DNA of 64,000 nt, from assembly GCA_964624665.1 (NCBI GenBank), contig CAZUZG010000001.1:7310-71309 (forward strand), given 5' to 3'. This document shows, piece by piece, positions 16,137-37,387 of this stretch (position 1 is the stretch's first letter; each line of letters begins with the position of its first letter). Origin of the DNA: an uncultured Candidatus Saccharibacteria bacterium (lineage in GTDB: Bacteria > Patescibacteriota > Minisyncoccia > Phycocordibacterales > UBA9973). A program made the translations under genes and the position numbers. The notes below the pieces were generated by a model that was not told the DNA's origin, did no database searches, and saw only the letters and a program-made list of their open reading frames with translations.

Positions 16137-17300
16137 CTAAATTTTTATTGGAGGTTTACTTTTCTTCCTTCTTTTCAATTCAATTTCAATTTCTGAAAGC
16201 TCAGCGTTTTTATTTCTAATATCCATTTTATGATTTAAAAAATGAATATATTTCATCGGACCAACGATTCTATTTAAAGCCGGAATAATTACAATACTTA
16301 TTCCATCGCCAATTTTATCCTTGAAATCATAGGCAGATTTATCAATTTTAACAGAAGCCCAAATCGAATTGTATAATGTAATCGTTAACGCAACGCAGTC
16401 TGGTAAATTTAAGAGGGTTATCAAATGCCCTCCTTCCCAACCATAGAATTCCAACAAGTCATCTTTTTTGTTTGGATCAAAGAAACTCATTCCGTGAAGG
16501 GGGATATTTTCCCGTTCTTCTTTTGTCTTTGCCCACATATATTTTCTTAATCTTTCAGCCTCAAGGCTTTTCACAAAATTTTCACCCAAAAATTTTGCTC
16601 CCATACCTAAAGCCATCTTTGCTAAAAATCTGTTTTCAGCAAAAGGAGTGAATTCAAATCCTACCTCAAGTACTTTTTTCTTAAATAACTTATTATTTAG
16701 TTTCTTTAATTCACTGGGAATTTCAGAAAACACATTACCTGGTGGCTTATCTCCATTTCCAAGAAACAGTTGTGAGCCTTTAAACTTCTTAATGAAAGAC
16801 CTAAAAATAGTTGGGTGCCATGCTTTATTATTACTGACAACAAAAAGAAAAGCGAACCCTTTATCTACATCACTCTTTTTTAAATATGGCGGTATTCCAA
16901 CCACCGCCGGATATGATTTTGAATCAGAATAAGGAATATGAAAATGGTAAATTGAATCACCTGTTGGTCCAATCCAAACATCACAAATTTTACCTTCATA
17001 GGTAACCGAGCTTAACTTCCCCATGTATTTTAAAGGCAGTACCGGATTATCTTCAATTTTCGCGTAATCTCTATAATGAGTTGATAATTGGGATTGCATA
17101 AACCAGCCTTTCACCGCAGGAGCATCGATAAATCTACCAGCAAGATTATTACAATTACCACACACATTTGGAATGGTAAAAAGGTTGTTTTTAGGTGTGC
17201 CAATTAAGGATTTTGGCAAAATATGTTCTTTGGAAAACCTATATTTTTCTCCCAAAGCTTTCAGCTCATCACTATCCCTTCCACAGTAAACACAAACCAT
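16137..17300 (-). CDS. HNH-endonuclease-domain protein with long C-terminal domain of unknown function
   Basis: N-terminal CVYCGRD...FSKEHILPKSL...VCGNCNN matches the CxxC...EHIxP...CxxC HNH zinc-finger nuclease layout. 387 aa. Confidence 0.55.
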   Translation of the reverse strand: MVCVYCGRDSDELKALGEKYRFSKEHILPKSLIGTPKNNLFTIPNVCGNCNNLAGRFIDAPAVKGWFMQSQLSTHYRDYAKIEDNPVLPLKYMGKLSSVTYEGKICDVWIGPTGDSIYHFHIPYSDSKSYPAVVGIPPYLKKSDVDKGFAFLFVVSNNKAWHPTIFRSFIKKFKGSQLFLGNGDKPPGNVFSEIPSELKKLNNKLFKKKVLEVGFEFTPFAENRFLAKMALGMGAKFLGENFVKSLEAERLRKYMWAKTKEERENIPLHGMSFFDPNKKDDLLEFYGWEGGHLITLLNLPDCVALTITLYNSIWASVKIDKSAYDFKDKIGDGISIVIIPALNRIVGPMKYIHFLNHKMDIRNKNAELSEIEIELKRRKKSKPPIKI

Positions 17301-20204: not shown

Positions 20205-21956
20205 CTAAAATCCTGGAGAATATCCTAGAAATTCTATGATCGTAGCATGGTGCTTTTTTTGAGGTTTAGCCCTTCCATTTTCCCAATAAGTCAACGAATC
20301 TTCACTTATTTTTAAGATAATTGCCACATCTTTCTGGAAAAGCCCGAGTTCCTTCCGCCGCTTCCTTAGGTGGTCACCTAATGTATTGACGGGCAGTCTT
20401 TTAAACTCTGGTTTTATGCCTTTTAAAACTACCGGCCTCAATGGATAGGCAAGAGAGAGAATGGTCAATGAAACTATGTGGTTTCGTAGACCATTCTCTG
20501 TGAATTTCGGAGAGGCATTGAGGTTGTTGAGCGTAATCTCAATCTCGGTTTTGTTGACTATTATCTTGTTGGTAATGGATTCAATAATAAAGCGCTTGTC
20601 TTCATCGTTGTAGGTTCCCCAATTTTCATAAACGTTTTGGCTTTTGGAAATTGCCTCATTGTTGTTTATGACCTGAATCTTCATAAAATCGACATCGGAT
20701 TGGATAATGGCTAATTCCTCCTCTTTTTGGTTTAAACGCTCTTGTATGGGCATATAGCGCTTATTAAACCCTTCTTTGGGTATCTCTTGGCTGTTTAATA
20801 GGTCAAATAGAGTATCTATCTCAGAATTGATTTTTTTAATGTCAGCTTTAAGCAAATCCCTTTTTTGTTCGCTTTCTTTTACAATATTCTCATTGTCTTT
20901 GAAATGATCTGAAACATCGGTGGTGTTCCAGTATTTTTTGACTTCGTAAAGGAATACTTCCTCGATGTCGGGAATTGTGATTTTGTTCCGGCATTTGGTG
21001 CAAGTATATTTTTTGATACTTGGGATTACATACATCTTGTGATTTGGGTCACAATAGCAGAACATTAAGCCAGAGAATAGGTTAATGGTTTTCTTAGGTT
21101 GCTTCACTCTGTTTATCTTATTCCCATTCAAAATGGAAATACACTGGTTGAATGTTTCTTCTGAAATAATGGCCGGAGCAGGATTAATTATCCATTCGGA
21201 TTCAGGTTTTAACTTCCAGGCCTTTTTATCACCTGTAGACTTGGTATAGTTGCGGATTCTTGAACCCATAGCAATTGGGTCCCGAAGTAACCGGTCTATG
21301 GTTGCATCTGAGAATTCTGAATTATTCCGAGTTCTATATCCCCTCCTATTCAGTTCGTTCGCTACAGTTAATTTGCGTTTGTGCTTTAGGAATAAGTCAT
21401 ACATTAGTTTACGGACTTTAGATTCTTCCTCGTTTATTGCAAGATTCTTTGCTGAATCATACATATATCCAAAAGGGGCTGCGCCACCTAAAGGTTTGCC
21501 CATCTTTGCGCGAATTGGCACACTAGCCGCAACACGTTCAGCGATTTCTTCCCTTTCAAATTGGGCTAATGCTGCAATGACGGTAAAGAATAGCCGTCCT
21601 GCGCCGGAGCTGGTATCAATGCTTTCGTGAAGGCTAATGAGGTCGGCATCATGTTTACGGAACATTTCAGCAAAGCTTAATAGTTCCGTTGTGTTTCTTG
21701 ATAGCCTGGCAAGCTTTGAGAATATTAAGCCAGTGATCTTACCCGATTTAATGTCGCTTAGCATCTTGGCTGTTTCAGGATAATCCATTACTGATTTTCC
21801 TGATTTCGCATCGAGTCTATACATTTCTTTTACCTCCCACCCTTTGGCTTCGGCATATAGTCGCCCACGCTTTTCGTGAACCTCTGGGCTTTCACTATTT
21901 ACTGAGTCTTCATGGCTTACACGAATCCATAGTCCTACTGATTTACTGCTTTGCAT
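20205..21956 (-). CDS. Large serine recombinase (resolvase domain + recombinase domain + zinc ribbon) with C-terminal XRE-like HTH
   Basis: GLWIRVSHEDS (catalytic Ser context) and LHESIDTSSGAGRLFFTVIAALAQFEREEIAERV (resolvase); CYCDPNHKMY...CTKCRNK (zinc ribbon); C-terminal LGDHLRKRRKELGLFQKDVAIILKISEDSLTYWENG. Confidence 0.85.
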   Translation of the reverse strand: MQSSKSVGLWIRVSHEDSVNSESPEVHEKRGRLYAEAKGWEVKEMYRLDAKSGKSVMDYPETAKMLSDIKSGKITGLIFSKLARLSRNTTELLSFAEMFRKHDADLISLHESIDTSSGAGRLFFTVIAALAQFEREEIAERVAASVPIRAKMGKPLGGAAPFGYMYDSAKNLAINEEESKVRKLMYDLFLKHKRKLTVANELNRRGYRTRNNSEFSDATIDRLLRDPIAMGSRIRNYTKSTGDKKAWKLKPESEWIINPAPAIISEETFNQCISILNGNKINRVKQPKKTINLFSGLMFCYCDPNHKMYVIPSIKKYTCTKCRNKITIPDIEEVFLYEVKKYWNTTDVSDHFKDNENIVKESEQKRDLLKADIKKINSEIDTLFDLLNSQEIPKEGFNKRYMPIQERLNQKEEELAIIQSDVDFMKIQVINNNEAISKSQNVYENWGTYNDEDKRFIIESITNKIIVNKTEIEITLNNLNASPKFTENGLRNHIVSLTILSLAYPLRPVVLKGIKPEFKRLPVNTLGDHLRKRRKELGLFQKDVAIILKISEDSLTYWENGRAKPQKKHHATIIEFLGYSPGF

Positions 21957-22334
21957 TGTTACTGAATTTAAGAGTTAATTTACTGAATCTTGGTTTAATA
22001 AAAAATTAAATTTTTCAAAAGAAAAAAGGACAAAAAAGAAAGCGATAATAAAAAGCACGGGTTTCTTGGTGTCAAGGTTTTTTGAACAAAATATTTTTAC
22101 TTCAAAAAATTAACGCTAAAATATATTTTCAAAAACTTGTATAACCTTTACTCCAAGAAACACGTGCTTACCTTTGCGACCTTTTTTGTTTTTTCATTTG
22201 GAAAACAGGGAGATTTAAAATGTGTCGAAACTCACCCAATTTTTTTTTAAAATCATTAGTTGGTTTGCCTGCAAAGTATATATTAGCAATCGAATAAGAA
22301 AATTTCAAAAAATTATTATTTGTAAAAACAAATT

Positions 22335-22643
22335 ATGGTAGCTCAGGTACGAGGCAAAAAGAAAGAAACTATGTTTGATACTATTATCGGGTCGGTTGTA
22401 AGCATTGCTAATGGCAATACCTTTACAATGCAAGTTACCCATATTGGTATTAATAATATTCTTTCTTACAAAAACCTTGAGATTATAAGAATAATTGACA
22501 AGGAGTCTGCTGACCTATCAACAACCAAAGGATTTTCTGATAAAAAAGAACTTTCTAATCTTTTAATTGGGAAAAAGATTAAATGCAAAATTCATCACAG
22601 AAACGAATACAATATACTCTTAGCCAATATTGAAATAATTTAA
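22335..22643 (+). CDS. Degenerate SNase-like OB-fold small protein (paralog of 19591..19887)
   Basis: VVSIANGNTFTMQVTH / LEIIRIIDKES / ELSNLLIGKKIKCKIHHRNEYNILLANIEI align with SNase ATLIKAIDGDTVKL / FRLLLVDTPET / [34 protein letters not shown]. D21/D19 become N and R87 becomes I. Confidence 0.5.
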   Translation: MVAQVRGKKKETMFDTIIGSVVSIANGNTFTMQVTHIGINNILSYKNLEIIRIIDKESADLSTTKGFSDKKELSNLLIGKKIKCKIHHRNEYNILLANIEII

Positions 22644-23235
22644 ACTCAAATTCTGCATTCATGGCAAGTGCAATGAAATAAAATATTAGGTATGGCACAA
22701 AAGGGGCAAGCATATTTTATTTATTGCTCTTGCACTCAGGCGGGTGTTTTTGTGATTAAATAAATTTGGTCTTGCTCTGCAAGGCGATTTATTTAATTAC
22801 AAAAACACGAAGGGTTGGCGTGGGTCAGCTGTGCGGCTATTTACACATAATGCCAATTATATTGTGAAGAAATTAACTCCGCGCGAAGCGCACCTTTGAA
22901 AAAGTCTGAGCGATATAATTTGCATTATGTTATATAGCTTAGGGCTATATTTTCATCGCATCCTTTTTTGTGTGTAAGCCAACTCTTTTCAACCACAGCT
23001 TCGTTTTGACGAAGCGAGGATTGGAATGGGTTGTTTGTGGGCGGATAAAAAAATGCGGTGAAAATATAGCAGAAGGGCTGGCGTGCGGAAGCGGCAAAAA
23101 TACAGTAAAGCCCGAAGCATGAAGGGCAGTGGATTTTTGCCGCTGGGGACTTTTTTGCTCTTTCGATAATTCCCTTCTTATTATCTAAATGCTACGATCC
23201 ATTCAGAAGTTTCAACAAACAAAAACCTTTCTGAA
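22644..23235. other. ~590-bp GC-enriched non-coding region with several strong hairpins (candidate structured RNA or recombination/regulatory region)
   Basis: No long ORF. 10-bp inverted repeat TTAAATAAAT..(21 nt)..ATTTATTTAA at ~22755-22795; GCTTCG/CGAAGC hairpin at ~22997-23020; 11-bp stem GCGGCAAAAAT...ATTTTTGCCGC at ~23090-23145 followed by a T-run. The motif GG(T/C)TGGCGTG(G/C)G is repeated at ~22812 and ~23073. Confidence 0.35.
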
Positions 23236-23970
23236 ATGGAAACACTCAGCTCTTTCACATCAATTTTCGACAAAGTGGCCTATGGAAACAATTACACTAA
23301 AACATTCGATGATTTTCTTATTATGTGTCTTTGCGCATTCAGTAGAAATCCGGAAACAGGTTTATCCTATAATGAGGATGAATATTTACAAATCATTGAG
23401 CCTTACAAAAAAGATGATCGAGTAAAATATTTCCCACAACTATTAGGCTCAATGATTCTTTATATGGAGGACCATAAAGATAGTGATAGCGGAAACGACC
23501 TACTTGGCTCATTTTATGAAAAGGAGCTAAGCCTAGGAAAAAACGGGCAATTCTTTACCCCCTTTCATATTTGTTCGATGATGGCTAAAATGCAAGGGAA
23601 CCAAGATAAAAGCAGATCGCTTAATATTTTGGACCCATGCTGCGGAAGCGGGAGGATGCTTATGGCTCATGGGAAAAGTAACGGAGGATTCAACAATCAC
23701 TACGGAATAGATATTGACCCGTTATGCGTAAGAATGACAACAATAAACTTATTTCTAAATGGATTAAGCGGTGAAGTTATCTGCGCTAATGCACTTATAC
23801 CGGATGACTTTAGATTCGGGTATAGAATATCATTTCTTCCTTTCGGAGTTTTTAGAATTGATAAAAAAGAAGATTCTGTGCTTTGGCAAATTAATCAGGC
23901 TACATTTGAGTCGAGAATTGCAAATCATGAATCAAATAAGCCTACTCAGGAACAGCTACGATTATTTTGA
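23236..23970 (+). CDS. N6-adenine DNA methyltransferase-like protein, truncated (motifs X and I present, motif IV NPPY absent); probably a remnant or non-catalytic
   Basis: GQFFTPFHICSMMA (motif X) and ILDPCCGSGRML (motif I, SAM binding). No (D/N/S)PP(Y/F) follows within the 244 aa, whereas HsdM-like enzymes are about twice this length. Confidence 0.45.
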   Translation: METLSSFTSIFDKVAYGNNYTKTFDDFLIMCLCAFSRNPETGLSYNEDEYLQIIEPYKKDDRVKYFPQLLGSMILYMEDHKDSDSGNDLLGSFYEKELSLGKNGQFFTPFHICSMMAKMQGNQDKSRSLNILDPCCGSGRMLMAHGKSNGGFNNHYGIDIDPLCVRMTTINLFLNGLSGEVICANALIPDDFRFGYRISFLPFGVFRIDKKEDSVLWQINQATFESRIANHESNKPTQEQLRLF

Positions 23971-24498
23971 TTTAAACAACAACTCCCGTAATTTAACATT
24001 GCAGGAGTTTTATTTATTGGAGACGCTTTTGATAATAAAAGTAGAAACAACTAAAGCTCCCATTTAAAAGTAGACTCAAAGCCTCTGCGCAAGTTAAATC
24101 ATTATTTTATTAATTTTATGGCTATAAAAAAATAAAAGTGTATTGTTTCTTACAACTGGAATTGAATCATCGCGCCGCACTTCTATGGGAGAACGGAACC
24201 CATCTTCAAACTATAATCCAGCCTAAAAAAACATATTCTCTTTATCATTTAAAAAGCTTTTATGTTGAAGTTATTGTCCATAACAACCTGAATGAAATCA
24301 TTGATATTACCCCCTTTGTTAGAGGTTGGAGATTGGACAAATATCTTGAAATTATTGAGATTGAGGAGATATAAAAAAGAAATTTTAATTATTATAATCT
24401 ATCCTGCTTAAAGCCACATTGCTAAAAAATTCAGTATATATTATCTGCTTCCATAATTAGGATATTTCATATAAGGCATTTTATATTTAAAACTCGGA

Positions 24499-24921
24499 TC
24501 AAGTTGAAAACCTTGTATATTTCCTTCTCAAATCATTCTTCTTTTTCTCATGCAGCGTCTTTAATAATTTGAATTTCGACTGTAAAACCCTTTTGATAGC
24601 CCTCTCGGCAACATCATTAAAATGTTCAATATATTCCTCTAATCTAATTCCTTCAAACCGACTTCTATATACAACCTCCTTTGAAAGCAAATTAATAACC
24701 ATTACAATTGAAATTCGATCTATGTTTTCAAAAATATCATTTTCAATTTTTAATGATTTAGTTTCTATTTCACCCTCAGTTAATTGCTGTCTATAAATTG
24801 ACTTCAGTTTCTCTGAAATATGCTTATGAAACTTTGAGTGGATTTTTTCCTGGGAATCAAAATTTTTATTGATAATTTTCAGAACCAATAAAGCAAGCTG
24901 TAGTTTGGAATATTTTTTCAT
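24499..24921 (-). CDS. Hypothetical protein (140 aa)
   Basis: ORF only; Lys/Glu-rich, no motif recognised. Confidence 0.3.
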   Translation of the reverse strand: MKKYSKLQLALLVLKIINKNFDSQEKIHSKFHKHISEKLKSIYRQQLTEGEIETKSLKIENDIFENIDRISIVMVINLLSKEVVYRSRFEGIRLEEYIEHFNDVAERAIKRVLQSKFKLLKTLHEKKKNDLRRKYTRFST

Positions 24922-24988
24922 TCATTACAAATATAAAAATCGAAATGAAAAATTTTATTAAATTCGATCTTTATTTGTTACCAATCTA

Positions 24989-26341
24989 TTGATTATGATA
25001 AAACTATTAACCCGTTGTTTAACCTTCCTATTTATATTTCAATTAAGTAAAAATCTCAATGCTCAAATCATTACAACCATCGCTGGTGGAACATTAGGCT
25101 ACTCGGGTGATGGTGGTCCGGCGATAAGTTCTCAATTAACATATCCTGAAGGCGTTTGTGTAGATGATTCCGGCAATGTATATATCTCAGATGCAGGAAA
25201 TAATAGAATTCGAAAAATAAGCGCTTCAACAGGTTTTATTAATACAATTGCAGGTACGGGAACAGCAGGCTATTCTGGTGATAGCGGTCAAGCCGTTAAT
25301 GCTGAAATTAATCAACCTATTGGCATTGCGTTGAGTCGTTTAACCGGTGATGTATATTTTGCTGAGTATGGAAATAACACCATTCGAAAAGTAAATCAAT
25401 CGACAGGCTTAATATCAACCGTTGCAGGAACTGGGATAGCTGGTTATTCAGGAGATAACGGGCCTGCAATAAATGCGAAATTATATTTTCCACTGGGAGT
25501 TTGTTTGGATACTTTAGACAATGTTTATTTTTCGGATGCATGGTATGGACGTGTGCGAAAAGTGGAAGTTGCAACTGGAATTATAACAACGATAGTTGGA
25601 AATGGTATATCCGGTTATAATGGTGATGGAATTCTTGCAACAAATGCCCAATTAAATTATCCAACAGGGGTTTGTTTAGATGATTCCAGTAATTTATATA
25701 TAACAGATTGCTTTAATTCACGAGTAAGGAAAGTAAATGCAATTACAGGGCTCATTAGTACAATTGCCGGAAATGGAACTTCTGGCTTTTCAGGAGATGG
25801 CGGAATCGCAACCAGTGCAACATTAACAAGTCCTGCGGGAGTTTTTGTTGATGATACCGGACATGTTTATATTTCAGTTCCAAATAACAGAAGAATTAGA
25901 AAAGTAAATGCTTCTACTGGTATAATAACAACAATTGCAGGAAATGGTAGTGGAGGTTTTGCCGGAGATGGAGGACTTGCAACAGACGCAAAATTAAATA
26001 ATCCGAAAAGTCCATTTTTTGATAAACAAGGTAATTTATATATAGCGGATTCACAAAATAATAGAATTCGAAAAGTGGTATCTAATATTACCGCAATTAA
26101 GAATAGTGGAGGGCTCAGTGAAATTAGTATTTACCCTAATCCTGCTAACGAGCTGGTAAACATAACTGGTATAACGGGTGCAACCTCAATAAGGATGTAC
26201 GACGTGATCGGCAACTTAGTAATGCAAAAAGAAACAGATGTGAATACAACAATAGAAACAAATCAATTTGAAAATGGTATATACCTGCTTATTGTAAAAA
26301 GCGAAAAAGTATCAGTAAATAAAATTGAAATAAGTAAATAG
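24989..26341 (+). CDS. NHL-repeat beta-propeller protein with T9SS type A C-terminal sorting domain
   Basis: Signal peptide. Seven or more repeats of YP.GVcvD.sGNvYisD.gNnRIRKi..stG.I.TiAG.G..GysGDgG.A. C-terminus ISIYPNPANELVNITGITGATSIRMYDVIGNLV...GIYLLIVKSEKVSVNKIEISK is a Por_Secre_tail-type CTD. Confidence 0.8.
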   Translation: MIMIKLLTRCLTFLFIFQLSKNLNAQIITTIAGGTLGYSGDGGPAISSQLTYPEGVCVDDSGNVYISDAGNNRIRKISASTGFINTIAGTGTAGYSGDSGQAVNAEINQPIGIALSRLTGDVYFAEYGNNTIRKVNQSTGLISTVAGTGIAGYSGDNGPAINAKLYFPLGVCLDTLDNVYFSDAWYGRVRKVEVATGIITTIVGNGISGYNGDGILATNAQLNYPTGVCLDDSSNLYITDCFNSRVRKVNAITGLISTIAGNGTSGFSGDGGIATSATLTSPAGVFVDDTGHVYISVPNNRRIRKVNASTGIITTIAGNGSGGFAGDGGLATDAKLNNPKSPFFDKQGNLYIADSQNNRIRKVVSNITAIKNSGGLSEISIYPNPANELVNITGITGATSIRMYDVIGNLVMQKETDVNTTIETNQFENGIYLLIVKSEKVSVNKIEISK

Positions 26342-26420
26342 TTGCTTTATGAATGTGGTTAGGCTTTATCATTTTAATGAGAAAGTTCTTTTATCCCGGA
26401 TTTTGTAGTAGAAATTAAGT

Positions 26421-26932
26421 TTATAAACTGAGCGGGAATTTTGCGTAGGCAATTTTACCCATTAAACTACCGTACCATTGCCTTCTTTTTTGCGGCACAC
26501 TCATTTTTAGTATTGCTTTATTTCCTTTTTTTATCATCCAACTTCCTACTGCAAAGCAGTTGAATCTAAGTGTGGGAAGTTTAGGCTGGGCTTGACCTTG
26601 GTGCGTCAGCTGACGATATAAGCTCATCAAATTATAACTGATAGTTACCATTCTCATAGCTGCTTCTGTGACATAAAAATCATCCATGCTAAAACCTTCG
26701 GCTCCAAAATCTTCTTTAAGTTCCTTATATTTTTTCTAATGCATACTCTGGGATCAAAAAATAAATTTGAGTAATGTACTGAAAAATGGTTGGTGAACTT
26801 TTGAATAAAAATTCTTATCATAGCCACGTTATTCTGAAGAGGAAATAGGCTCTGTTGGGAGAACAACCTATCAGCAATAAGAATAATGCTGATAAAGAAA
26901 GGAAAGGTAGTTAATTGACTACCTTTTTTCAT
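26421..26932 (-). pseudogene. Degraded 3' fragment of an IS4/IS5-like DDE transposase (frameshifted)
   Basis: Two frame-shifted minus ORFs; ...GAEGFSMDDFYVTEAAMRMVTISYNLMSLYRQ resembles the conserved C-terminal '...aYNLl.lfR' block of IS4-family transposases. No DDE core is present. Confidence 0.35.
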
Positions 26933-27276: not shown

Positions 27277-27660
27277 CTATGGAAATTTAAGTTCATTACA
27301 ATTACATTTTTTCCTTTTACTAAGTCGCCCATTTATTTGGTTTTGAAGATAACACTTTTCTTTGCGATAGCCCCAGGAATTAACCTTTCCTTTTTTTCTA
27401 GTAACTGCATGTATTTTTCCATCTTTATCGAAGTCCGTAATTACTAATAAAAATTTGCATGTAGCATCCTGATATTGTATACATTTTCTATATGAAAAAT
27501 ATTTAGTGCTTACTACCTTGCTTATCGCTTTTGTATTTTCATCGTAAAACACTATTTTTTCAGTCATACCACGTCCTTTTCTGGTAATAATTGTATCTTG
27601 AGAATATAAATTATTACACAGCACAAAGACAAGTACAAAGACAAGAGAAGCTGTTTTCAT
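27277..27660 (-). CDS. Putative immunity protein for the RHS C-terminal toxin (secreted, 127 aa)
   Basis: Signal peptide MKTASLVFVLVFVLCNNLYSQ. Starts 2 nt after the stop of the RHS gene on the same strand, the typical toxin-immunity arrangement. Confidence 0.5.
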   Translation of the reverse strand: MKTASLVFVLVFVLCNNLYSQDTIITRKGRGMTEKIVFYDENTKAISKVVSTKYFSYRKCIQYQDATCKFLLVITDFDKDGKIHAVTRKKGKVNSWGYRKEKCYLQNQINGRLSKRKKCNCNELKFP

Positions 27661-27661
27661 T

Positions 27662-30600
27662 CTACTTATTGCTTACAGAGTCCGGCAATCTGTTATCTGT
27701 ACCCTTGTTTTCTTTTTTAAATCCATGACCTTTACCTAACCTAGCCGGGAAGCTAATTATTTTTCTGAACAAATTTTCAAAACCAACTGTTTTTTGATCA
27801 TTTTCTTTACTTCCAGATTTATCTCCTTTTACCCAATTAATAAAGTGACCAAATTCATGCCATGCAACAATTGACTTTGAGAATTTATTTGATACCGTTT
27901 TTTGCTCACCATCATCTAATATTTTATCAGCGTCTTCAACTTCTTTCTGATCAATATCAAAATCTAACAAATTGTATTTAACTTTAGGATTAAGGTCAAT
28001 ATCAACTTTAACAACCCCCTCTTTGGATGCGTCATCGTAACTCTCTGTCGGCAATTCAGTAACACCAGGCGAACTACCTGTTCCAATTCGAGTAACCTTA
28101 ACATTTACTTCTACTTTTTGATTGTTAACTATATTGTTTACAAATTCCGACATCAGAACTTCTTGTGCTTCACTGGTTTTAGTAAAATCCGCTTTGGTTT
28201 GATCAAAGATTAATTTATTATTTTCAAATCTGAATGCATCTTTATTGTCTCCAAATGCTTGTTCTAACGCTAGTGTAACTCGCTTCTGAGCTTTTTTATT
28301 TTTAGCAATTAAATCTCTTCCATCATAATCTTGGAAAACAATTGGATTGTCTAAAGAAAAATTATACGGAGAAGAACCTGGGTACTTTTTAAAAAGCGGG
28401 TCGACACTTAACCAGCCACAAATCCTTGAGTCATAAATCCTTGCACCAAAGTCTAAACTATTCCCATTTCCTTTAATTTCGTCATCTTTCTCTTTTCCAT
28501 TAAAGCCATAACGATAACCTTCCGAACTTGCATAACTCCTTTTCAAAATCGGCATACCGAAAGCGTAGTAATCTGAATACTGAATAGCTTCGGCAAAATT
28601 GGTAATTGTTCCACCTGTTAAAATTGCTCCTTTACGGGCACTTATAATTGCACGCACATTACTTAGGTGGTCTTTCAATTCATATGTATGAGTTGCTACC
28701 ATCCTGTCGAATATACCTTCATTAGTTGTAATTAACTGAAGCTTATGCAGCTGTTGTGATAATTTACCGGATAGCAAATAGGTATTATCTGATAAGGCTG
28801 TATTGTCATCTACGCTTAAAGTATTCGTAGTAAAGGTATTTGCAATATGCTCGTCTATTAAAGACCAGCCCGTGTTTTCACTATTGCTTACATATATCAC
28901 CTTATCACTACCAATCCCACGTCGTATATCGCCTTCCTCGCTTAGCATATAAGTACTAGTTGCTAATGAAGACTGGTATTGCCAAATGACTTTATCGCTG
29001 GTTACTCCTGCAGATACTGTTAATGGTGTCAGTAATCGCTGGCTGTAATATAAATAACCGCTTTGGTGCGAGTATTCAATACCTGCATCTTTACCCGTTA
29101 AATCCGCAAGGGAAGCATTAAAATCACGCCCCGTTACCGCATGGTTTACATCCAATTGCCAGCCTATTAATTGGGCCGGGCGGAAATCGTACCAGCCTGT
29201 GGCTAATCCGGTAAACGCCACTGTTGTCAGCTGTTTACCATCAGGTGACAATTGTATGTCACCTTTTCCATCAGATGTCGTTACATTGCCAATAACATCT
29301 GCCACAACGGGGCCTGTAATATCTCCTGCGGGAGTAATATTGTAGGCTATAAGCTCCGTTTCATTAGCTCCTGAAACATAACGTGTCTGATATAAAACAG
29401 AATTTTTATTTGGGCGGGCATCTTCAAACAAAGCCATGTAATTACCCTTGCCAGCTCCTAATGGGACATTTATACGGCTTGCGTCAATATCACCCAGAGG
29501 GTTTGCCCCCACTGCTGCATTTCCGGCAAGACTCATATCTACTACATGATAATAACTGTAACCTGAAACATCTACAGTGAACACAAAATATTCAGACGGA
29601 GCAGCGGGATTACGCATAATGACAGGTTTAGAAGCGCCTGAAGCCAAGATTCCCAATCCTGCATTTGGCATCAGGTTCCAGTCCTTATCATAGATCATAA
29701 ATGTATTCGTTGCTCCGTAATAATCATCCGCTACAGCAATGTAAAACAATGGATTACCGTTTTCGTCTTCTACAACTGCCATTCCTCTACTGAGCGTTCC
29801 TTCAAACTCTAATTTGTTGAAGGCCGTTGTTGTGCCCAAGGCATCAATATCCACATCTTTCAATTGAGCTTTAATTACAGTTCCACCTGCAATTGTTGTA
29901 TTTTGAGTACCTGAAGCCAACAGATGTGTATTCTCTGTTTTACTGATGCTTGTAATGCTGTTAAAACTCACATCATTTATATCAGCCATATCAAAATCTA
30001 CAATTCCAACTGTCATATTATTTACAATACGCATTCCGATACGGCCACTGCCATATATGGATTGTTCTTTTAATTTATACTCAGCCTGCATCACTTGTGG
30101 ATCTGCCGTTGTAAGATTCTTACGTTCATAAACAGCCATGATGTTTCCACCCGCATCATGAACGTAATATGTATACGCCCATAGATCCGGATCAGATATT
30201 CCAGAACCTGTGCGGGGCTTAAGTAATTTAAGAACGCGATTACCTCCAGCATCATACATAAATTCCATATCTGGTTTAGTACTACTTGGTATTCGAGTAA
30301 TACTTTTTATTTTTCCATAAACTGTCCAGTCAATTGTTGCAATTTCTTCAGCTTCGTCTTTTATTAAATTACCGATGCCATCGTAATCGTAATTGGTAGC
30401 GGCTTGCGTAGTAATGTCGTCCATGGTTCCATTCTGACTACCAGTAGCATTATCAGTTACGTAAGCCAGTTTATTGTTATTAGTTGGATCAACATAACTA
30501 TACGCTATATCATCAAAGAAATTACCCGTACCTTCAGATCTACGCGTAAGGTTTAGTAAATTACCATTAGGGTCGTAAGAATATGAAGTCGAATAATCAT

Positions 30601-33600
30601 CATTTGATGCGCCCCAACTACGTGAAGATGAATTGTAGTCTTTCTTAAACTCACTGTCCTTAATACGGTTCAGTTCGTCATAATGGAAAACCTGCCCCAT
30701 TAATTTACCGTCATCAGGATCATTCGCCACAGTAATACCATGATTAATACAGGTAGACCATGTTGAGATGTTACTATTAAACAAATCCTGCCCAGTATAA
30801 TTTAATGTAGCAAAATTAGAGGCTGTATATGAGTTCGTGTTACCTAGATCATAGTTAGTATTTTCATAATCATTCGTATAATAACCCAATGACATAGCGA
30901 AAACATCTTTTTCATAGGCGGAGCTTGTAAGCGCTTCGGGATCAGGTGAAATAGAACTGTTTATTTCCGGAAAATTTATCGCTTTTATGTATCCTTGTAT
31001 AGTATAAGCGTAATCAATCCCCTGTATATGATCCTGGCCTAATTGCTGTCTCTTTAAAGGACCGTGTTTGTAATAATCATATTCAGCATCATGTTCCCAG
31101 TTTAAATTATTATCTGATGTAAGTACTTCTATGAGTTGATTGTTTTCATCATAAATATATTTATGAAAAAAGCGATCGGAACGGGATTCATTATAACGCA
31201 CCATCAAAATCTTATTACTTATTAAATCATAATCGTACTTAATGTAGTTGTCAGAAAAGCCCGGAATAACCTGAATCAGCCATTCTACATTTCCATGTGT
31301 ATCATAGCTGTAATATGTATATGTTCCCTCTGATGTATATACATAACTAACTCTATTTTCAAGAAACTTTTGTGGATCACCGGCATAGCTAATACTCAAA
31401 TCTGGAATACCATAAACAGTAAAAGTTTGTTGTGTCCCGTTTAACGGAAAAGTATTATCATTTGTGTAGATAACATTATCAAGGGCAGAAAATGTCATAA
31501 CTCCACTAGGTAAAATAGCTTCACCAACCTCGATTATTCTATTTAAATCATCATATTTATTATACGAATAAACATTACTAATTGCCTGTTTTGCATTTTG
31601 AGAAAAACGCAACAAACGCTTATCACTATAAATGAATGCAGTGGTTCCTGCATCAAGAGTTTGTTGACTTATCAGTCCCTTTAAAGAATTATTATCGTAA
31701 CCACTTACAAAAGTATGATTAGGATGCATAGCCCTTGTTGTTGAACTAAGGTCAATACCTTTCGGTGGTACAGTACGTACAAGATTTTGAGCTCTGTCGT
31801 AATAGTACAAGGTAAAATGCTTCAAACTAATATCATAACAAACATGCAGGTTGTCATTAATATTATCTCCATTCGCACATTTCTGCGATAAAATTGCTTT
31901 CAACTCATCCTGACTCGCCAATTGACACTGTTCCTCTGGCGGTGGTGGTGGCGGTGGTGGTGGCGGTGGTGGTGGCGGTGGCGGTCCACACGGAGGAAAT
32001 GGACAATCCGGTATACACGGTGGAGCATCGCATGGAGGATCAGGTGGCGTGTATTTACCCTTCCAGCGGAAACACAGGTCAAAAGATCGTGTGACAGCAG
32101 TTGGGTTAATAAACAATGTTGTTGTTGAAGTACAACCAGAAACATCGGTAGCCGTGATAACATAATTTCCGGCGGCTATATTTATAGCAGAAGAAATACC
32201 TGTTGTATTATTGAATTCATTGTATTTTACAGAACCCGAAGGTTGCAAGGCCCACACAAAACTATAAGGAGCAATACCACCCGTTAAAGTAGCGGTAGCA
32301 TCGCAACTCGTTGTGCTTCCAAGAGCAGTCAGATTCATTACTGGAGGATCTGTTAATGTAACAGTGGCTGTTGCTTCGCAGCCACCAGCATCACTAACGG
32401 TTACCGAGTAGGCGCCAGCAGGTAAATTGTTAGCAAAGGCAAATATTGAAACGCTTGTATTAGAACTATTTGTCCAGTTATAGGTTACAGGAGGTGTACC
32501 TCCTGTAGCGGCAACAACTGCACTACCTGTAGAAGCTCCATTACATAAAGGATTAACAGCATTGTTAATTGCAGCATATAATGGCACTCCCGGTTTTACC
32601 GTAAAATTAACTGTAGCCGTACAACCATAATAGTCATCTACCACCGTTACCTGATAATTACCCGGAGCCAATGTGTTTTGTTCTTTATTAAAAGCAAGAG
32701 AAGTACCCGAACCTATGGCAACAGGGCTTCCGGTTGACATATCAAACCATGTAAAAATATAACCGGTAGGTACAGGCGATGTAGGAGTAGTATTAATACC
32801 TGCGGTCGCAATTACATCAGCCACATTATCGGCACAGGCCACTAAATTCTTTAAAGTAATATAAACAGAAGGTGTAACAACATTAACTGATTTAGTTACC
32901 GGAGGGCAATTGAAACCTACATCTGTAAACGTTAAGGTATAAGTTCCACCAACAGCCGGGTTAATAGAAGAGCCTGTAGATTGTCCCGAAGGTATCACCC
33001 CTCCGTTTGATGCTGTCCATAGATAGGTATAAGTGCCACTACCACCAGTAACAGTTGTTGTGATCTGTCCTCCTGTACCATCTGTGCATTTGATATTGGT
33101 GGCATTAAGTGCAATAAATGGCGAGAGAATTGTTAAAACACCTGTTCCTGTTCCTGTGGTAGCCGTTAAAGTACAAGTTTCGGAAGTAGCTATACAAGCC
33201 GTGTTTCCAAGCATGTTTGTTGCCGCTTGCAATTGCAATGGTAATCCACATGGTATAGCATCATCATCTGCAAGTGTATATGTAAAAGTTACGGATTGAC
33301 CAGGCGCAATACCTGAGGGTAAATGCCATTTAATATCCGAGTTAACAATGGTGTAATTAGGGGAAGCGACAGCCTGAACTCCCACAGGAACTGTCAATAC
33401 CAAATAACTGAAGCTACCTGTTGGTTGCATTCCGTTATTGGTAACGGTTATTGTTCCGTTAACTTCAGTAGAACCAGAATACATATTAACAGGAGCTATA
33501 GAAACTCCCAGATTTTCTAATTCAGGAAATCCCTGGATTTTGATTTTTTTACTGAAAGCCAAATTGATGTCATTGTTACAATTGGTTTTTCCAACTATAA

Positions 33601-36600
33601 AAAACTTAACGGGTAATCCCGGATCAAAGCCACAATTAGGAATTAAACTCAAATCAAGATTTAAGAGATTACCGTTTCCTCCTCCATTACCCGGAAGGCC
33701 ATTATTAATTGCAGAAATAGACGATGATAAATCCCAACAATATTGACCAGTTGCATTAGGTGCTCCTGCACAATTTACCGTTGTAGCTGCCGTCAAGGAA
33801 CCAGTAGCTCCGGTTCCAGGATACGCATACGTTGGATTATTTGGACTTACCAGAGTAACGTCATGCGGAAGTTCTGCTCTTAATGATAAATCATAAACAA
33901 AACCTAATTTCGTTGAAGTTAAATCAATTGAGTAGGCAACATCCGTACAAAGTTCATGTGGTTCTGCCGTTGTTTCTGCAACAAGCATTTGCAGATTGGC
34001 TGTTTTGTAACGCAGAAATAAATCCTGTGGGCCATTTGTGCAAAGTGCCGATAATACAGGAGATGAAGCATTCGGATAACCAGCGCAATCCCATCCGTAA
34101 TAAATTTTTAAATTATCTGTTACATCTTCCACACAGGCTGTATAGGTTGCATTAATACGAATATGCCTGTTTACACCTGCAGGTATAGTACCGGCTTGTA
34201 TGAAATATTTTTCGCCTCCGGCTGTTGGGTATTCAGATGGTGTTGGTAACCAAACGTTATTATCTTCGTCGTATGCAGAAACAATTGTGATGTTTCCAAC
34301 ATTTGATGCACTTGGTTCAATCGCCAGCCATGTGTTTGGAGCAGCCCCTTGTAAAACAGAATTATAAATAAAAACATCCCAGCTTACAACTTGTTGGATT
34401 CCATCTTGTGTGGAATTTACACCTAAGGTTAAATCAGGCTTGTTAAAGTGATAATTGAAAAAAGTCATATTACTGTAAAGCCCGGAGGTCTTACAAGCGG
34501 CATCGTATGAATGATCTGAGTAATACACAGTTGTATTGCTATTATGATCTCCGGCAGACGTTGTGCAAGAAGGAATAACAGTATAATCTACCTGAATGGA
34601 TGCGTTAGGTCTTTTATCTAGTAAGAACCAGTTAGAACTACTGGCCCATTGAAGCTGATTTCCAATAACGACGGGGTTACTTATAGTCGTTGTGCCATAG
34701 TTAGGCCCATATTGTGACATGGTGGTTACCGATGAAGAATTATAGTTAAAGCCCGAAGGTAAAAACGCAGTAAAAGAATTCATATCACCAACAGGTCTGA
34801 ACTCATTCGGGAAATCATCACCCGGGGATCCGCCTTGGTATCTAAAAAATATCCCGCCATAATTAATACAATCACTAGGTGTCGTGTAACCGTTTACATC
34901 AACAAGGGGTTTTAAAATAAAAAACCGACCTCCCCAACTTTCGCCGCCACACTGCAATCCACCCGTCATGCCAATGTATGTAACCCTGAACCGTGGTATC
35001 TCATAAAAAGCATAATCAGGAATAGAAGCATCTTTTTTTACCGTAAAATCTGCATCCAGATTTATGCTAACTTCCGGAGACGTTGTTGAAGGAAAATAAG
35101 TACCGGGTACCGTAAAATCAAAATAATAAACTCCGGCCGCGGAAGTTATGCTTGGCGCGGGAGCCGCCTGCGGGGTGCCGTTAATAGTGAAAATAGCTGA
35201 ACTAAAATTAAAATCCAAAATATTAACCGAAGGTGAGGGGGGCGTATAGTTCAGGATAATATGAATATTATCAACTCCGCAAAGCGGATCACCCGTAACC
35301 ACACCCAAGGCTTGTACATGAAAATCATCACATTCATAAGCTCTTTCCAGATCAACTCCAACAGAGTTTTCATCGGCATTGGCAGCTGCGTTGTAATCAC
35401 TTAAAGTCCACGCAGAGTTATCAGTATCGGGTTTATACTTTCCAAATGAAGTTCTCTTAATTATTAGGTCCGTTGGCCGTGGTTCACATCCTCCACTACC
35501 ACCACTACAGGCACTTATATGATTGTACACCTCTATTGTATGACATCCTAAAGGCTGTTTACAGCTGGGGCTGGATGTACAATACATATAATAATTCATT
35601 GGGATATTCTGGAATCCACCCTGAACGCCTGTTGTGCAATCAAATTCGATATCTATTTCTAATCTACCATTTCGCGGGTCGTTAGACTGAACAGGAATTG
35701 TCAAAATGCCATTAGAAAAATTGTAATTGCTTATTGAAACACCATTAAATCTAACGGGGTTTGCAGATGTTGAAGAAATAGAGTATCCAACAGGTAATGT
35801 TACAATCGCTTGATAATTTTCAGTTGAACAATCGATAAGCCCATATGGATTGTTACTTGCATATCCACTTAAATTATAGGCAAAAGTAGTGTTTTGGCTT
35901 GTGGCCATGTCAGTTGGTCCGGTTCCTGTAACTGATACAGTAGGAGAATAAGCAAATATTGAACTAAAGATAGCCGGCGAAATATGGTTAATACCGCAAA
36001 TATCATCCGTTGAGTAATTAGGCGCTAGACTCATTGAAAAATAATTTTGACAAGCATCAGGAAAAGAACAAGGAATTTGAAATCCTATTCGAACGGTAAG
36101 TGTTTCCTCATCAGGCAAGTCATCATAAAAGCCGTCACCATCCAGATCCTCCATTCCAAAACCCGAACCATCAGGATCGGCTGTACAGGCTGAAAAATCG
36201 AGATGAAATACTCCCTGAAATTGAGTAATAGTTAATCCTGTAATCTGATCTATAGGAGTATAACCGCCAATTGAGTTTAAAACAGACACACTATAAGTTG
36301 GACCTATATCAATCGTCATACTATTGTAAAAGAAATCGGCAATAAAATTTGTACCACCATCCTGTTTATCGAACTGACCTGAAGTTGTTCCTATGTTGTG
36401 GAAAGTAACATTAATTTCTCCGGATCCCCCCATATTAGCCGGAGTAATTACCGTCGTTTGTTTATCAATTACCGGCAACCCATTTAACGCATTAATATAA
36501 CTGTTAGCCTGGGCATCATTTTCTCCTGCATTACATAAATCAGGAGGGTTACTACCTACAAGCGGGGTACAACCCCATTCAACCGTATAGTCAGTTTGAA

Positions 36601-37387
36601 GTGATAAGCCACAATCATTCACATGAACCTGTTCCAATAAAACAAGCTCCTCATTTTGTGCTAAGTTGTAGGCACTTAAATCGAAGGTATACACACTACC
36701 CGATATAGAAGGAGTAATAACAGTGTTAGGTCCCTGAACAATAAGATTTACAAAAGTAAGTGTTGAAGGATAGGTAACAACTAATCTTGCACCATGCAGT
36801 GCGCCCAAACCAGTATTTTTAATAGATACCTGCCTTGTTTTGTTTTCGTTTATAACTGCATTCTGTGTTTGTGTTGAATTAATGATAGAAAGAATAAGGT
36901 CGGCATATTTTACATTATAGGAAGAAGAACCATTTGGTTCAGTAATATTTCCTGAAGTACTCCCTGCTACATAATCAACATCGGTATTGTTATGTACCAA
37001 TTGATTTGTAGGAAGCGTACTTATTATTTGACATCCAACTTCTGCACTGAAAACTAACGAAGTACTTTGTCCTGGTAGAATAGTTCCTGAGAAAGTAAAA
37101 GTGGGTGTAGCTGAAGGAGATGTTGGCCCTGCCCAACCTGTACCACTCGAAGTGCCGTTATAAATTACATGAGTTGGTAAACCCGGATGTAATGAAAGTG
37201 AAGTAATAGTCTCTGTATTATCAGACGAATTACTTACTGTTACTGTGAAGGTAGCAGCTCCCCCACAAACTTCTATGTAAGAAGGCACATCTGTGCTAAC
37301 AGTAATAAGTTGTGCCTGTGCAACTAAACTTCCGCCACATAACAGAAGTAGTAACAACAACCTGATTCGATTTTTAATTAAACCCAT
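27662..37387 (-). CDS. RHS-repeat polymorphic toxin (3241 aa): signal peptide, Ig/SprB-like repeat region, poly-Pro linker, YD repeats, RHS core, C-terminal HExxH zincin-like toxin domain
   Basis: SprB-type repeats (..CTDGTGGQITTTVTGGSGTYTYLWT..; ..LTGGIAPYSFVWAL..). P16 tract. YD repeats (YSYDTHGNVEW, YDPNGNLLNL, YDYDGIGNLIKD). RHS core DHLSNVRAI...YYAFGMP...YRYGFNGKEKDDEI..FGARIYDSRICGWLSVDPL..SPYNFSLDNPIVFQDYDGRD. C-terminal domain with VAWHEFGHFINWV. Confidence 0.85.
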   Translation of the reverse strand: MGLIKNRIRLLLLLLLCGGSLVAQAQLITVSTDVPSYIEVCGGAATFTVTVSNSSDNTETITSLSLHPGLPTHVIYNGTSSGTGWAGPTSPSATPTFTFSGTILPGQSTSLVFSAEVGCQIISTLPTNQLVHNNTDVDYVAGSTSGNITEPNGSSSYNVKYADLILSIINSTQTQNAVINENKTRQVSIKNTGLGALHGARLVVTYPSTLTFVNLIVQGPNTVITPSISGSVYTFDLSAYNLAQNEELVLLEQVHVNDCGLSLQTDYTVEWGCTPLVGSNPPDLCNAGENDAQANSYINALNGLPVIDKQTTVITPANMGGSGEINVTFHNIGTTSGQFDKQDGGTNFIADFFYNSMTIDIGPTYSVSVLNSIGGYTPIDQITGLTITQFQGVFHLDFSACTADPDGSGFGMEDLDGDGFYDDLPDEETLTVRIGFQIPCSFPDACQNYFSMSLAPNYSTDDICGINHISPAIFSSIFAYSPTVSVTGTGPTDMATSQNTTFAYNLSGYASNNPYGLIDCSTENYQAIVTLPVGYSISSTSANPVRFNGVSISNYNFSNGILTIPVQSNDPRNGRLEIDIEFDCTTGVQGGFQNIPMNYYMYCTSSPSCKQPLGCHTIEVYNHISACSGGSGGCEPRPTDLIIKRTSFGKYKPDTDNSAWTLSDYNAAANADENSVGVDLERAYECDDFHVQALGVVTGDPLCGVDNIHIILNYTPPSPSVNILDFNFSSAIFTINGTPQAAPAPSITSAAGVYYFDFTVPGTYFPSTTSPEVSINLDADFTVKKDASIPDYAFYEIPRFRVTYIGMTGGLQCGGESWGGRFFILKPLVDVNGYTTPSDCINYGGIFFRYQGGSPGDDFPNEFRPVGDMNSFTAFLPSGFNYNSSSVTTMSQYGPNYGTTTISNPVVIGNQLQWASSSNWFLLDKRPNASIQVDYTVIPSCTTSAGDHNSNTTVYYSDHSYDAACKTSGLYSNMTFFNYHFNKPDLTLGVNSTQDGIQQVVSWDVFIYNSVLQGAAPNTWLAIEPSASNVGNITIVSAYDEDNNVWLPTPSEYPTAGGEKYFIQAGTIPAGVNRHIRINATYTACVEDVTDNLKIYYGWDCAGYPNASSPVLSALCTNGPQDLFLRYKTANLQMLVAETTAEPHELCTDVAYSIDLTSTKLGFVYDLSLRAELPHDVTLVSPNNPTYAYPGTGATGSLTAATTVNCAGAPNATGQYCWDLSSSISAINNGLPGNGGGNGNLLNLDLSLIPNCGFDPGLPVKFFIVGKTNCNNDINLAFSKKIKIQGFPELENLGVSIAPVNMYSGSTEVNGTITVTNNGMQPTGSFSYLVLTVPVGVQAVASPNYTIVNSDIKWHLPSGIAPGQSVTFTYTLADDDAIPCGLPLQLQAATNMLGNTACIATSETCTLTATTGTGTGVLTILSPFIALNATNIKCTDGTGGQITTTVTGGSGTYTYLWTASNGGVIPSGQSTGSSINPAVGGTYTLTFTDVGFNCPPVTKSVNVVTPSVYITLKNLVACADNVADVIATAGINTTPTSPVPTGYIFTWFDMSTGSPVAIGSGTSLAFNKEQNTLAPGNYQVTVVDDYYGCTATVNFTVKPGVPLYAAINNAVNPLCNGASTGSAVVAATGGTPPVTYNWTNSSNTSVSIFAFANNLPAGAYSVTVSDAGGCEATATVTLTDPPVMNLTALGSTTSCDATATLTGGIAPYSFVWALQPSGSVKYNEFNNTTGISSAINIAAGNYVITATDVSGCTSTTTLFINPTAVTRSFDLCFRWKGKYTPPDPPCDAPPCIPDCPFPPCGPPPPPPPPPPPPPPPPEEQCQLASQDELKAILSQKCANGDNINDNLHVCYDISLKHFTLYYYDRAQNLVRTVPPKGIDLSSTTRAMHPNHTFVSGYDNNSLKGLISQQTLDAGTTAFIYSDKRLLRFSQNAKQAISNVYSYNKYDDLNRIIEVGEAILPSGVMTFSALDNVIYTNDNTFPLNGTQQTFTVYGIPDLSISYAGDPQKFLENRVSYVYTSEGTYTYYSYDTHGNVEWLIQVIPGFSDNYIKYDYDLISNKILMVRYNESRSDRFFHKYIYDENNQLIEVLTSDNNLNWEHDAEYDYYKHGPLKRQQLGQDHIQGIDYAYTIQGYIKAINFPEINSSISPDPEALTSSAYEKDVFAMSLGYYTNDYENTNYDLGNTNSYTASNFATLNYTGQDLFNSNISTWSTCINHGITVANDPDDGKLMGQVFHYDELNRIKDSEFKKDYNSSSRSWGASNDDYSTSYSYDPNGNLLNLTRRSEGTGNFFDDIAYSYVDPTNNNKLAYVTDNATGSQNGTMDDITTQAATNYDYDGIGNLIKDEAEEIATIDWTVYGKIKSITRIPSSTKPDMEFMYDAGGNRVLKLLKPRTGSGISDPDLWAYTYYVHDAGGNIMAVYERKNLTTADPQVMQAEYKLKEQSIYGSGRIGMRIVNNMTVGIVDFDMADINDVSFNSITSISKTENTHLLASGTQNTTIAGGTVIKAQLKDVDIDALGTTTAFNKLEFEGTLSRGMAVVEDENGNPLFYIAVADDYYGATNTFMIYDKDWNLMPNAGLGILASGASKPVIMRNPAAPSEYFVFTVDVSGYSYYHVVDMSLAGNAAVGANPLGDIDASRINVPLGAGKGNYMALFEDARPNKNSVLYQTRYVSGANETELIAYNITPAGDITGPVVADVIGNVTTSDGKGDIQLSPDGKQLTTVAFTGLATGWYDFRPAQLIGWQLDVNHAVTGRDFNASLADLTGKDAGIEYSHQSGYLYYSQRLLTPLTVSAGVTSDKVIWQYQSSLATSTYMLSEEGDIRRGIGSDKVIYVSNSENTGWSLIDEHIANTFTTNTLSVDDNTALSDNTYLLSGKLSQQLHKLQLITTNEGIFDRMVATHTYELKDHLSNVRAIISARKGAILTGGTITNFAEAIQYSDYYAFGMPILKRSYASSEGYRYGFNGKEKDDEIKGNGNSLDFGARIYDSRICGWLSVDPLFKKYPGSSPYNFSLDNPIVFQDYDGRDLIAKNKKAQKRVTLALEQAFGDNKDAFRFENNKLIFDQTKADFTKTSEAQEVLMSEFVNNIVNNQKVEVNVKVTRIGTGSSPGVTELPTESYDDASKEGVVKVDIDLNPKVKYNLLDFDIDQKEVEDADKILDDGEQKTVSNKFSKSIVAWHEFGHFINWVKGDKSGSKENDQKTVGFENLFRKIISFPARLGKGHGFKKENKGTDNRLPDSVSNK
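31937..31986. repeat. Trinucleotide simple-sequence repeat (GGTGGTGGTGGC)x3+GGTGGCGGT encoding a P16 linker on the minus strand
   Basis: Read directly. Length stays in multiples of 3. Confidence 0.85.

Follow-up and report, generated by a model that had tools for sequence, protein, structure and literature searches.

Metallopeptidase domains placed at the C-terminus of rearrangement hot spot (RHS) proteins are an established class of polymorphic toxins, represented by Tox-HopH1 and Tox-MPTase1-5 (PMC3482391). Tox-HopH1, which unites HopH1 and NleD, was defined by the signature 'HExxH, [DE]N' (Zhang et al. 2012); it is found on RHS toxins of several phyla including Bacteroidetes, displays TcdB/TcaC-linked forms and has no known immunity family (PMC3482391). 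Among the MEROPS families, M91 is the nearest to the botulinum neurotoxin (BoNT) light chains, and according to Mansfield et al. a conserved third ligand is present in M91 and M27 (PMC6367388). Recently, the M91 C-terminal domain of a Salmonella Dublin Rhs effector was found to be antibacterial and toxic only if directed to the periplasm (2026; PMC13556075). The product of the adjacent gene neutralises this toxin, whose model resembles BoNT/A (PMC13556075). Here we describe the C-terminal domain of a giant RHS surface protein from Bacteroidota, 3241 amino acids (aa) long, together with the small gene that follows it, in a stretch of 64,000 nucleotides (contig CAZUZG010000001.1 of assembly GCA_964624665.1, positions 7,310 to 71,309), called the window below. 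In silico evidence supports the placement of this domain, new and rare, as a divergent member of the NleD/M91 (Tox-HopH1) class already known from RHS proteins, associated with an undescribed family of putative immunity proteins. Coordinates are collected in Table 1.

The initial annotation of this locus had described the last ~220 residues of the RHS protein as not RHS-like and HExxH-bearing. This holds for a domain of 216 aa and 24 kDa, free of Cys and unrelated to RHS, in which HEFGH is the sole HE..H of the 3241 residues; chance alone would give ~0.018 HExxH over its full length and ~0.003 over the C-terminal domain. The domain contains only three His (H152, H156 and H196, in the domain numbering used throughout), and all three are invariant across a family of 27 sequences. 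A third zinc ligand downstream of HExxH, of the gluzincin type, has a candidate in E179, which belongs to a near-invariant GFEN, 23 residues past H156 and on the next helix after that of HExxH. The gluzincin ligand of thermolysin, at +20, occupies a comparable position. H152, H156 and E179 are the predicted zinc ligands, and R191 and H196 are predicted as candidates for residues shaping the active site or acting in the transition state. A metzincin was considered and rejected because HEFGHFINWVK carries Asn and Lys at the Gly and third-His positions of HExxHxxGxxH.

Relatives of the domain are few. With the domain as query, a word-indexed search of 5.8 billion proteins returned 0 matches; an exhaustive phmmer search of 1.84 billion cluster representatives yielded 24 homologues, of which 8 have E<=1e-10. 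Identity to the window domain is 67% for one of them and 22-45% for the others. The family profile recovered only four proteins from the word-indexed set and added two new members, so that the family comprises 27 sequences including that of the window; the initial alignment held 25 sequences, and 25 members were scanned against Pfam. Six positions never vary in this 25-sequence alignment (H152, G155, H156, G177, G193 and H196), and conservation reaches at least 90% at E179, N180, R183 and R191. The resulting signature, HxxGH-x(19-33)-[VI]G[FY][ED][NS]xxR-...-RxGxxH, is present in 27/27 members, and the RHS-tip motif NPIxFxDxDGxD precedes the domain in 19 of the 24 homologues. All family loci with a named source are Bacteroidota. 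A scan with a closer sub-alignment found three related genome loci. Metagenome scans, one for the toxin and one for the immunity protein, found nothing, and the family is therefore rare.

By sequence the family connects to Peptidase_M91/NleD, which gives in silico support to the zincin-like peptidase proposed initially. The window domain itself does not reach the gathering score of Pfam PF14891 (Peptidase_M91), with no Pfam match at E<=1. Two of the 25 members do match Peptidase_M91; P0004, which phmmer relates to the window domain at E 2e-12, scores 25.8 bits for a gathering score of 25. Since only such relatives pass PF14891, the M91 membership of the window domain is transitive only. Aligned by hhalign with NleD of E. 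coli O157 Sakai, the family profile gives an E value of 2.5e-4 and a probability of 43% over 58 columns, with HExxH, TVG, EN, P-R and the final His all in register. A sub-alignment of six sequences reproduces the same register (E 1.1e-3). The combination of HExxH and a downstream [DE]N is present, as HEFGH and GFEN. Two other candidates were rejected: NleC (M85), for which hhalign comparison revealed no relationship, and Tox-MPTase1-5, as neither the window domain nor the 25 family members matched any Pfam Tox-MPTase. A PDB sequence search with the family profile gave no match.

The predicted fold points in the same direction. Modelled by AlphaFold on the family alignment, the domain reaches a predicted local distance difference test (pLDDT) of 82.1 and a predicted template modelling score (pTM) of 0.84. 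From a single sequence, the pLDDT is 38 and the model is unusable. The alignment-based model consists successively of a helix, a hairpin, a helix, three strands, an insert of low confidence, the helix 143-161 bearing HEFGH and the helix 169-185 bearing GFEN. All elements of a zincin fold are found in it: the sheet with its backing helix, the HExxH helix and the helix carrying the Glu ligand.

The second component of the locus is the 127-aa gene. As noted initially, an open reading frame (ORF) with a signal peptide directly follows the RHS gene; the junction reads ...AAT AAG TAG a ATG..., with a single base between the RHS stop and its ATG. The N-terminus (M-K-T-A-S, ten residues with a mean Kyte-Doolittle value of 3.6, then ...LYS/QD) fits a Sec signal peptide. 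The protein, of 12.6 kDa, has a mature part with an isoelectric point of 9.8 and five Cys, as opposed to none in the toxin. Searched as a profile against 5.8 billion proteins, it retrieved just two clusters, the window protein and a 130-aa protein, P0027; an exact lookup of the window protein (P0028) returned the same locus only. Neither the 127-aa nor the 130-aa protein has a significant Pfam or NCBIfam match, known Imm families included. The two are 44% identical and share the SQD junction and the five Cys of the mature region. In another Bacteroidetes genome, P0027 directly follows the 480-aa P0001, which is the 67%-identical toxin homologue and whose homology to the window protein extends back through the RHS tip. 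This adjacency (locus L004) is observed in 4/4 contig contexts, which adjoin an integrase and then a cassette of a DUF4329 toxin and an Imm-NTF2-2 immunity protein. Conservation of the 127-aa protein independently of this toxin, which would have spoken against the initial annotation, is not what we observe, its sole relative being always placed right after the closest toxin homologue.

A downstream ORF with a hydrophobic N-terminus is present at 7/7 toxin loci examined. Its products belong to three families without mutual relationship, whose distribution follows that of the toxin clades. One family, of 171 aa, is found in a Chryseobacterium metagenome-assembled genome (MAG), a Flavobacteriales MAG and a Logan contig; another, of 158/159 aa, follows P0024 and P0025 (29% identity, E 2e-9). 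The downstream proteins of these other clades gave no Pfam match, and the 127-aa protein displays no similarity to the 159-aa protein of another clade. Base composition separates the module from its carrier, the G+C content of the toxin and immunity module (27277-28312) being 0.30-0.33, compared with 0.39 in the remainder of the RHS gene (28313-37387), the pattern expected if recombination at the RHS tip had brought in the module. By tblastn, the window contains no second RHS tip, toxin or immunity copy. These data fit a cassette-type toxin-immunity pair in which the immunity protein works outside the cytoplasm, which in turn would place the target of the toxin in the periplasm or envelope. 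Such a site of action, already suggested in the initial annotation, is consistent with the exported downstream proteins of all three toxin clades.

We considered whether HExxH might have arisen by chance in a functionless variable tail, the 127-aa ORF then being no real gene. The lack of a direct database match for either sequence would suit this explanation. Against it stand the very low chance expectation for the motif within the domain, two His and four other positions that are invariant across 27 sequences of 22-67% identity, the confident folding of the domain model, and the 127-aa ORF itself, conserved with its Cys at the same position in a second genome. The conservation data refute this explanation, to which we give virtually no credence.

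Other loci of the family display their own arrangements. P0010, P0011, P0018 and the protein at L005 5671-6612 are short stand-alone proteins of 313-343 aa, composed of a signal peptide, a conserved N-domain of ~100 aa (…LSKGRYxExFxxDTLxxIGS…), the last ~35 RHS-core residues only, and the toxin. Instead of being silent orphan cassettes, these may act as secreted mini-toxins. Locus L001 (57-8844) carries at least five consecutive cassettes of a toxin and a small ORF (334/159, 404/185, 391/158, 477/229 and 381/146 aa), including one Tox-MPTase2 and the family member P0025, which lacks the Glu of HExxH.

The catalytic Glu of HExxH is not fixed in the family. It is kept in the window protein and altogether in 17 of the 27 members, while seven have Gly, two Ala and one Asp at this position. 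In these 10 sequences every other motif residue is kept. A neighbour-joining tree of the motif block groups the Gly and Ala forms in two diversified clades, and two Glu-less members, P0024 and P0025, retain conserved exported downstream genes. Consequently, canonical zincin catalysis is not a family-wide requirement: either the Glu-less clades have changed mechanism, or the whole family needs no canonical general base. One explanation of this pattern would be that the domain has a zincin scaffold and is not a protease, performing some other metal-dependent chemistry or acting as a stoichiometric binder, with a metal site made of H152, H156 and H196 and with E179 as the catalytic residue. The three His of the window domain are indeed precisely the three invariant ones. 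Nevertheless we hold this to be unlikely. HExxH is kept in the window protein and its closest relative; M91/NleD, the nearest family in sequence, consists of proven proteases; E179, on the next helix, has the spacing of a classical gluzincin ligand; and exported immunity proteins speak against a cytosolic nucleic-acid target. Extended to the family, the proposal would be that toxicity is independent of the canonical zincin general base, relying on a three-His metal site with E179 catalytic or on inhibitory binding of a periplasmic target. We judge this unlikely; if true, the family, window protein included, would consist of toxins derived from zincins that act on the envelope by a non-canonical mechanism. 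Because the Glu is retained both in the window protein and in the relative nearest to it, ordinary gluzincin catalysis is favoured for the window protein, whose domain we predict to be a protease.

We therefore favour, with moderate confidence, the view that the last 216 residues are a toxin of gluzincin-type metallopeptidase fold, belonging to a small Bacteroidota branch of the NleD/HopH1 (M91) class that is invisible to Pfam, and acting as follows. The giant protein would be exported by Sec via its signal peptide, then displayed or delivered by the RHS/YD shell. The RHS aspartyl autoprotease would free the toxin at DYDGR. In the periplasm or envelope of the recipient, the toxin would bind zinc through H152, H156 and E179; E153 would serve as general base, R191 and H196 would shape the active site, and an envelope protein would be cleaved. 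Protection of the producer would come from the 127-aa protein, translationally coupled to the toxin; basic, exported and probably disulfide-bonded, this protein would bind and block the toxin. The data show the ORFs, the motifs with their conservation, the family, the predicted fold, the sequence connection to M91 and the linkage between toxin and partner gene; zinc binding, proteolysis, site of action, immunity function, cleavage at DYDGR and delivery route are all inferred here.

Several observations weigh against this reading. Searched for directly, even at E<=1 to 10, nothing in Pfam, NCBIfam or the PDB sequences matches the window domain. Its model, compared by Foldseek with PDB and BFVD, retrieved nothing significant. 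The hhalign probability in the comparison with NleD is just 43%, the putative immunity family is known from two independent lineages only, and the HExxH Glu is replaced in 10 of the 27 members with the rest of the motif intact.

The carrier of this domain begins with a Sec signal peptide and a large Ig-like/SprB-repeat region; a poly-Pro linker then leads to the YD repeats, which are followed by the RHS core and the toxin domain. The Gln found at +1 of the signal peptide is typical of signal peptidase I substrates of Bacteroidota. SprB repeats are recognised by Pfam (E 1e-17). Between this region and the YD-repeat shell, a Pro/Cys-rich linker includes 16 successive prolines (aa 1802-1817; 31937-31984). 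No match to Pfam RHS_repeat was found in the protein, but YD-type motifs of the form [YFW]x[YFWH]Dxx[GNS][NRQK] number 8 at aa 2026-2415, versus 0.13 expected from shuffles. From the last YD repeat to the RHS core, ~500 residues (about aa 2420-2930; 28600-30140) have neither YD motifs nor a family match. Compared with PDB sequences, the RHS shell matched neither TcC, Rhs nor teneurin.

The initial annotation had placed an RHS core ahead of the C-terminal domain and had cited release at a DPxG(L/x) aspartyl-protease site. The core is indeed there, TIGR03696 being matched at E 4.6e-8 and by a narrow margin (33.5 bits for a cut-off of 32.5). The release motif, on the other hand, is not DPxGL and reads DYDGR; position 28330, given as the limit of the region, is its first base. 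The C-terminal end of the core reads ...VDPLFKKYPGSSPYNFSLDNPIVFQDYDGRD / ...DNPIVFQDYDG, and DYDGR is the second of two DPxGx-like motifs, the first being VDPLF, ~24 residues upstream. DYDGR has Tyr at the usual Pro position, where the relatives mostly have DPDG; at the same place the family shows D-x-[DNG]-G. The two-motif logic of the aspartyl protease derives from Rhs1 (PMC8636562). On the basis of its sequence and position, DYDGR is the predicted cleavage site.

The RHS gene lies at the end of a long minus-strand operon. Upstream and in the same orientation (37437-57854, minus), it is preceded by genes for a DUF6443 protein of 1288 aa, proteins of 254, 1922 and 207 aa, and an OmpH chaperone; a 1937-aa Ig/PKD/beta-helix protein, an HMA-like protein and an OmpA-family protein are encoded in the same stretch. 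The 1922-aa protein has a weak DUF6531 match and an N-terminus which we take to resemble SpvB/TcB. Comparison of the 1922-aa protein, the 1288-aa protein and the entire RHS protein with PDB sequences yielded nothing useful. The RHS protein carries no C-terminal domain of the type IX secretion system (T9SS), and neither PAAR, VgrG nor other type VI secretion (T6SS) genes were recognised among the genes scanned.

This operon, with its other giant surface proteins and without recognised T6SS genes, would also suit an effector directed against eukaryotes, like NleD, the BoNT light chains or Chryseobacterium Cp1, enclosed in a Tc- or teneurin-like RHS cocoon, the 127-aa protein then being an accessory factor or chaperone. 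In sequence as in fold the closest characterised relatives target eukaryotic proteins, and the TcdB/TcaC-linked forms of Tox-HopH1 (PMC3482391) provide a precedent. We consider this very unlikely, as the small exported downstream gene, present at every locus examined and switching family with the toxin clade, is a hallmark of toxin-immunity pairs. Moreover, the closest homologue lies in an array with the DUF4329 toxin and Imm-NTF2-2 cassette, P0025 belongs to the five-cassette array that includes a Tox-MPTase2, and an Rhs-M91 toxin is experimentally antibacterial (PMC13556075).

Just downstream of the immunity gene lies a variable or mobile region (20205-26932), whose features are listed in Table 1. 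Elsewhere in the window, HerA/TrwB-like ATPases, a fragment of a TraG/TraD-like coupling protein, a C5 cytosine methylase and an HNH protein are encoded (9415-12462, 60219-61514, 61522-62514 and 16137-17300). These genes suggest that DNA of an integrated conjugative element or a defence island flanks the RHS operon on both sides.

Table 1. Features of the RHS toxin locus and its downstream region, in window coordinates, and members of the family lacking the HExxH Glu, in coordinates of their own loci. A slash marks the end of a signal peptide; HTH, helix-turn-helix.
Feature	Position	Strand	Basis
RHS/YD-repeat polymorphic toxin gene, 3241 aa	27662..37387	minus	ORF list and translation
Signal peptide of the RHS protein, MGLIKNRIRLLLLLLLCGGSLVAQA/Q	37313..37387	minus	sequence read directly
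RHS-associated core (C-terminal plug, aspartyl autoprotease region), aa 2940-3023	28319..28570	minus	NCBIfam TIGR03696
DYDGR, predicted autoproteolytic release site just ahead of the toxin domain	28316..28330	minus	sequence
C-terminal toxin domain, 216 aa (LIAKNKK...SVSNK), putative divergent NleD/M91 (Tox-HopH1)-like zincin fold	27665..28312	minus	
HEFGH, aa 3177-3181; predicted zinc ligands H152 and H156, predicted general base E153	27845..27859	minus	
GFEN; G177 invariant, E179 and N180 at least 90% conserved; E179 predicted third zinc ligand (gluzincin type)	27773..27784	minus	
RLGKGH; R191 at least 90% conserved, G193 and H196 invariant; aligns with NleD PRRTSYPH	27725..27742	minus	
Exported basic protein, 127 aa, predicted cognate immunity	27277..27660	minus	ORF list
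Predicted signal peptide of the 127-aa protein, MKTASLVFVLVFVLCNNLYS/QD	27601..27660	minus	hydropathy; SQD junction kept in homologue
DDE transposase, C-terminal fragment	26421-26687		
T9SS-sorted NHL-repeat protein	24989-26341	plus	
N6-methylase fragment	23236-23970		
Large serine recombinase with HTH domain	20205-21956		
Glu-less family members: P0003, P0005, P0008, P0010, P0016, P0017, P0024, P0025, P0026, P0011	L001 3497-4672, L002 4352-5344		

Our results add to the M91 toxin class a Bacteroidota branch invisible to Pfam and three undescribed families of exported putative immunity proteins, and they lend support to recent work that places the action of Rhs-linked M91 domains in the cell envelope. 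The initial annotation had regarded a metallopeptidase as uncommon among RHS C-terminal domains. RHS metallopeptidase tips being already a known class of weapons that bacteria use on contact (PMC3482391, PMC13556075), the finding is less unusual than was then suggested, and the locus is for the most part an expected kind of toxin-immunity module. The one unexpected point is the natural replacement of Glu by Gly or Ala, which supplies variants ready for testing whether killing requires proteolysis. In addition, a small Cys-free domain of 24 kDa and a partner of about half this size would be convenient for finding the substrate of metallopeptidase toxins acting in the periplasm.

Several known systems share part of these properties. 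The Tox-MPTase1-5 domains (Zhang et al. 2012) share with the window domain their role, their place on RHS proteins and their general class of fold. The C-terminal zinc-metallopeptidase of Pseudomonas aeruginosa VgrG2b is described as an antibacterial periplasmic toxin, with a periplasmic immunity protein (PMC6899460); it is fused to a T6SS spike and not to an RHS protein. With the botulinum-type light chains (M27), thermolysin, M1 aminopeptidases and anthrax lethal factor, sequence identity is 8-14%; compared to M27 and the other gluzincins, the window domain has 216 aa instead of >400, lacks substrate-binding insertions and finds no match at the sequence level.

Tox-HopH1/M91 remains the closest of these systems, with NleD, HopH1 and the RHS/T6SS-linked forms such as Salmonella Dublin SED_RS06335. 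As in these proteins, HExxH is followed by [DE]N, and a TVG...EN...P-R...H block is found in a domain at the C-terminal position of RHS proteins, including those of Bacteroidetes. E179 and N180 of GFEN are the counterparts of '[DE]N' in the Tox-HopH1 signature and of SEN in NleD. Three features distinguish the window domain from NleD: it lacks an insert of 9 residues located in NleD between TVG and EN, the Gly of HxxGH is fixed, and the Tyr of RxxY is not conserved, an invariant His being found instead five residues past the Arg. With the Salmonella M91 toxin it shares a model resembling the BoNT/A light chain. The carriers differ, however, since the domain described here belongs to a giant Sec-exported RHS protein with SprB repeats and has no PAAR/T6SS context. 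The putative immunity proteins differ as well, being soluble, exported and Cys-rich at this locus and membrane-anchored in Salmonella.

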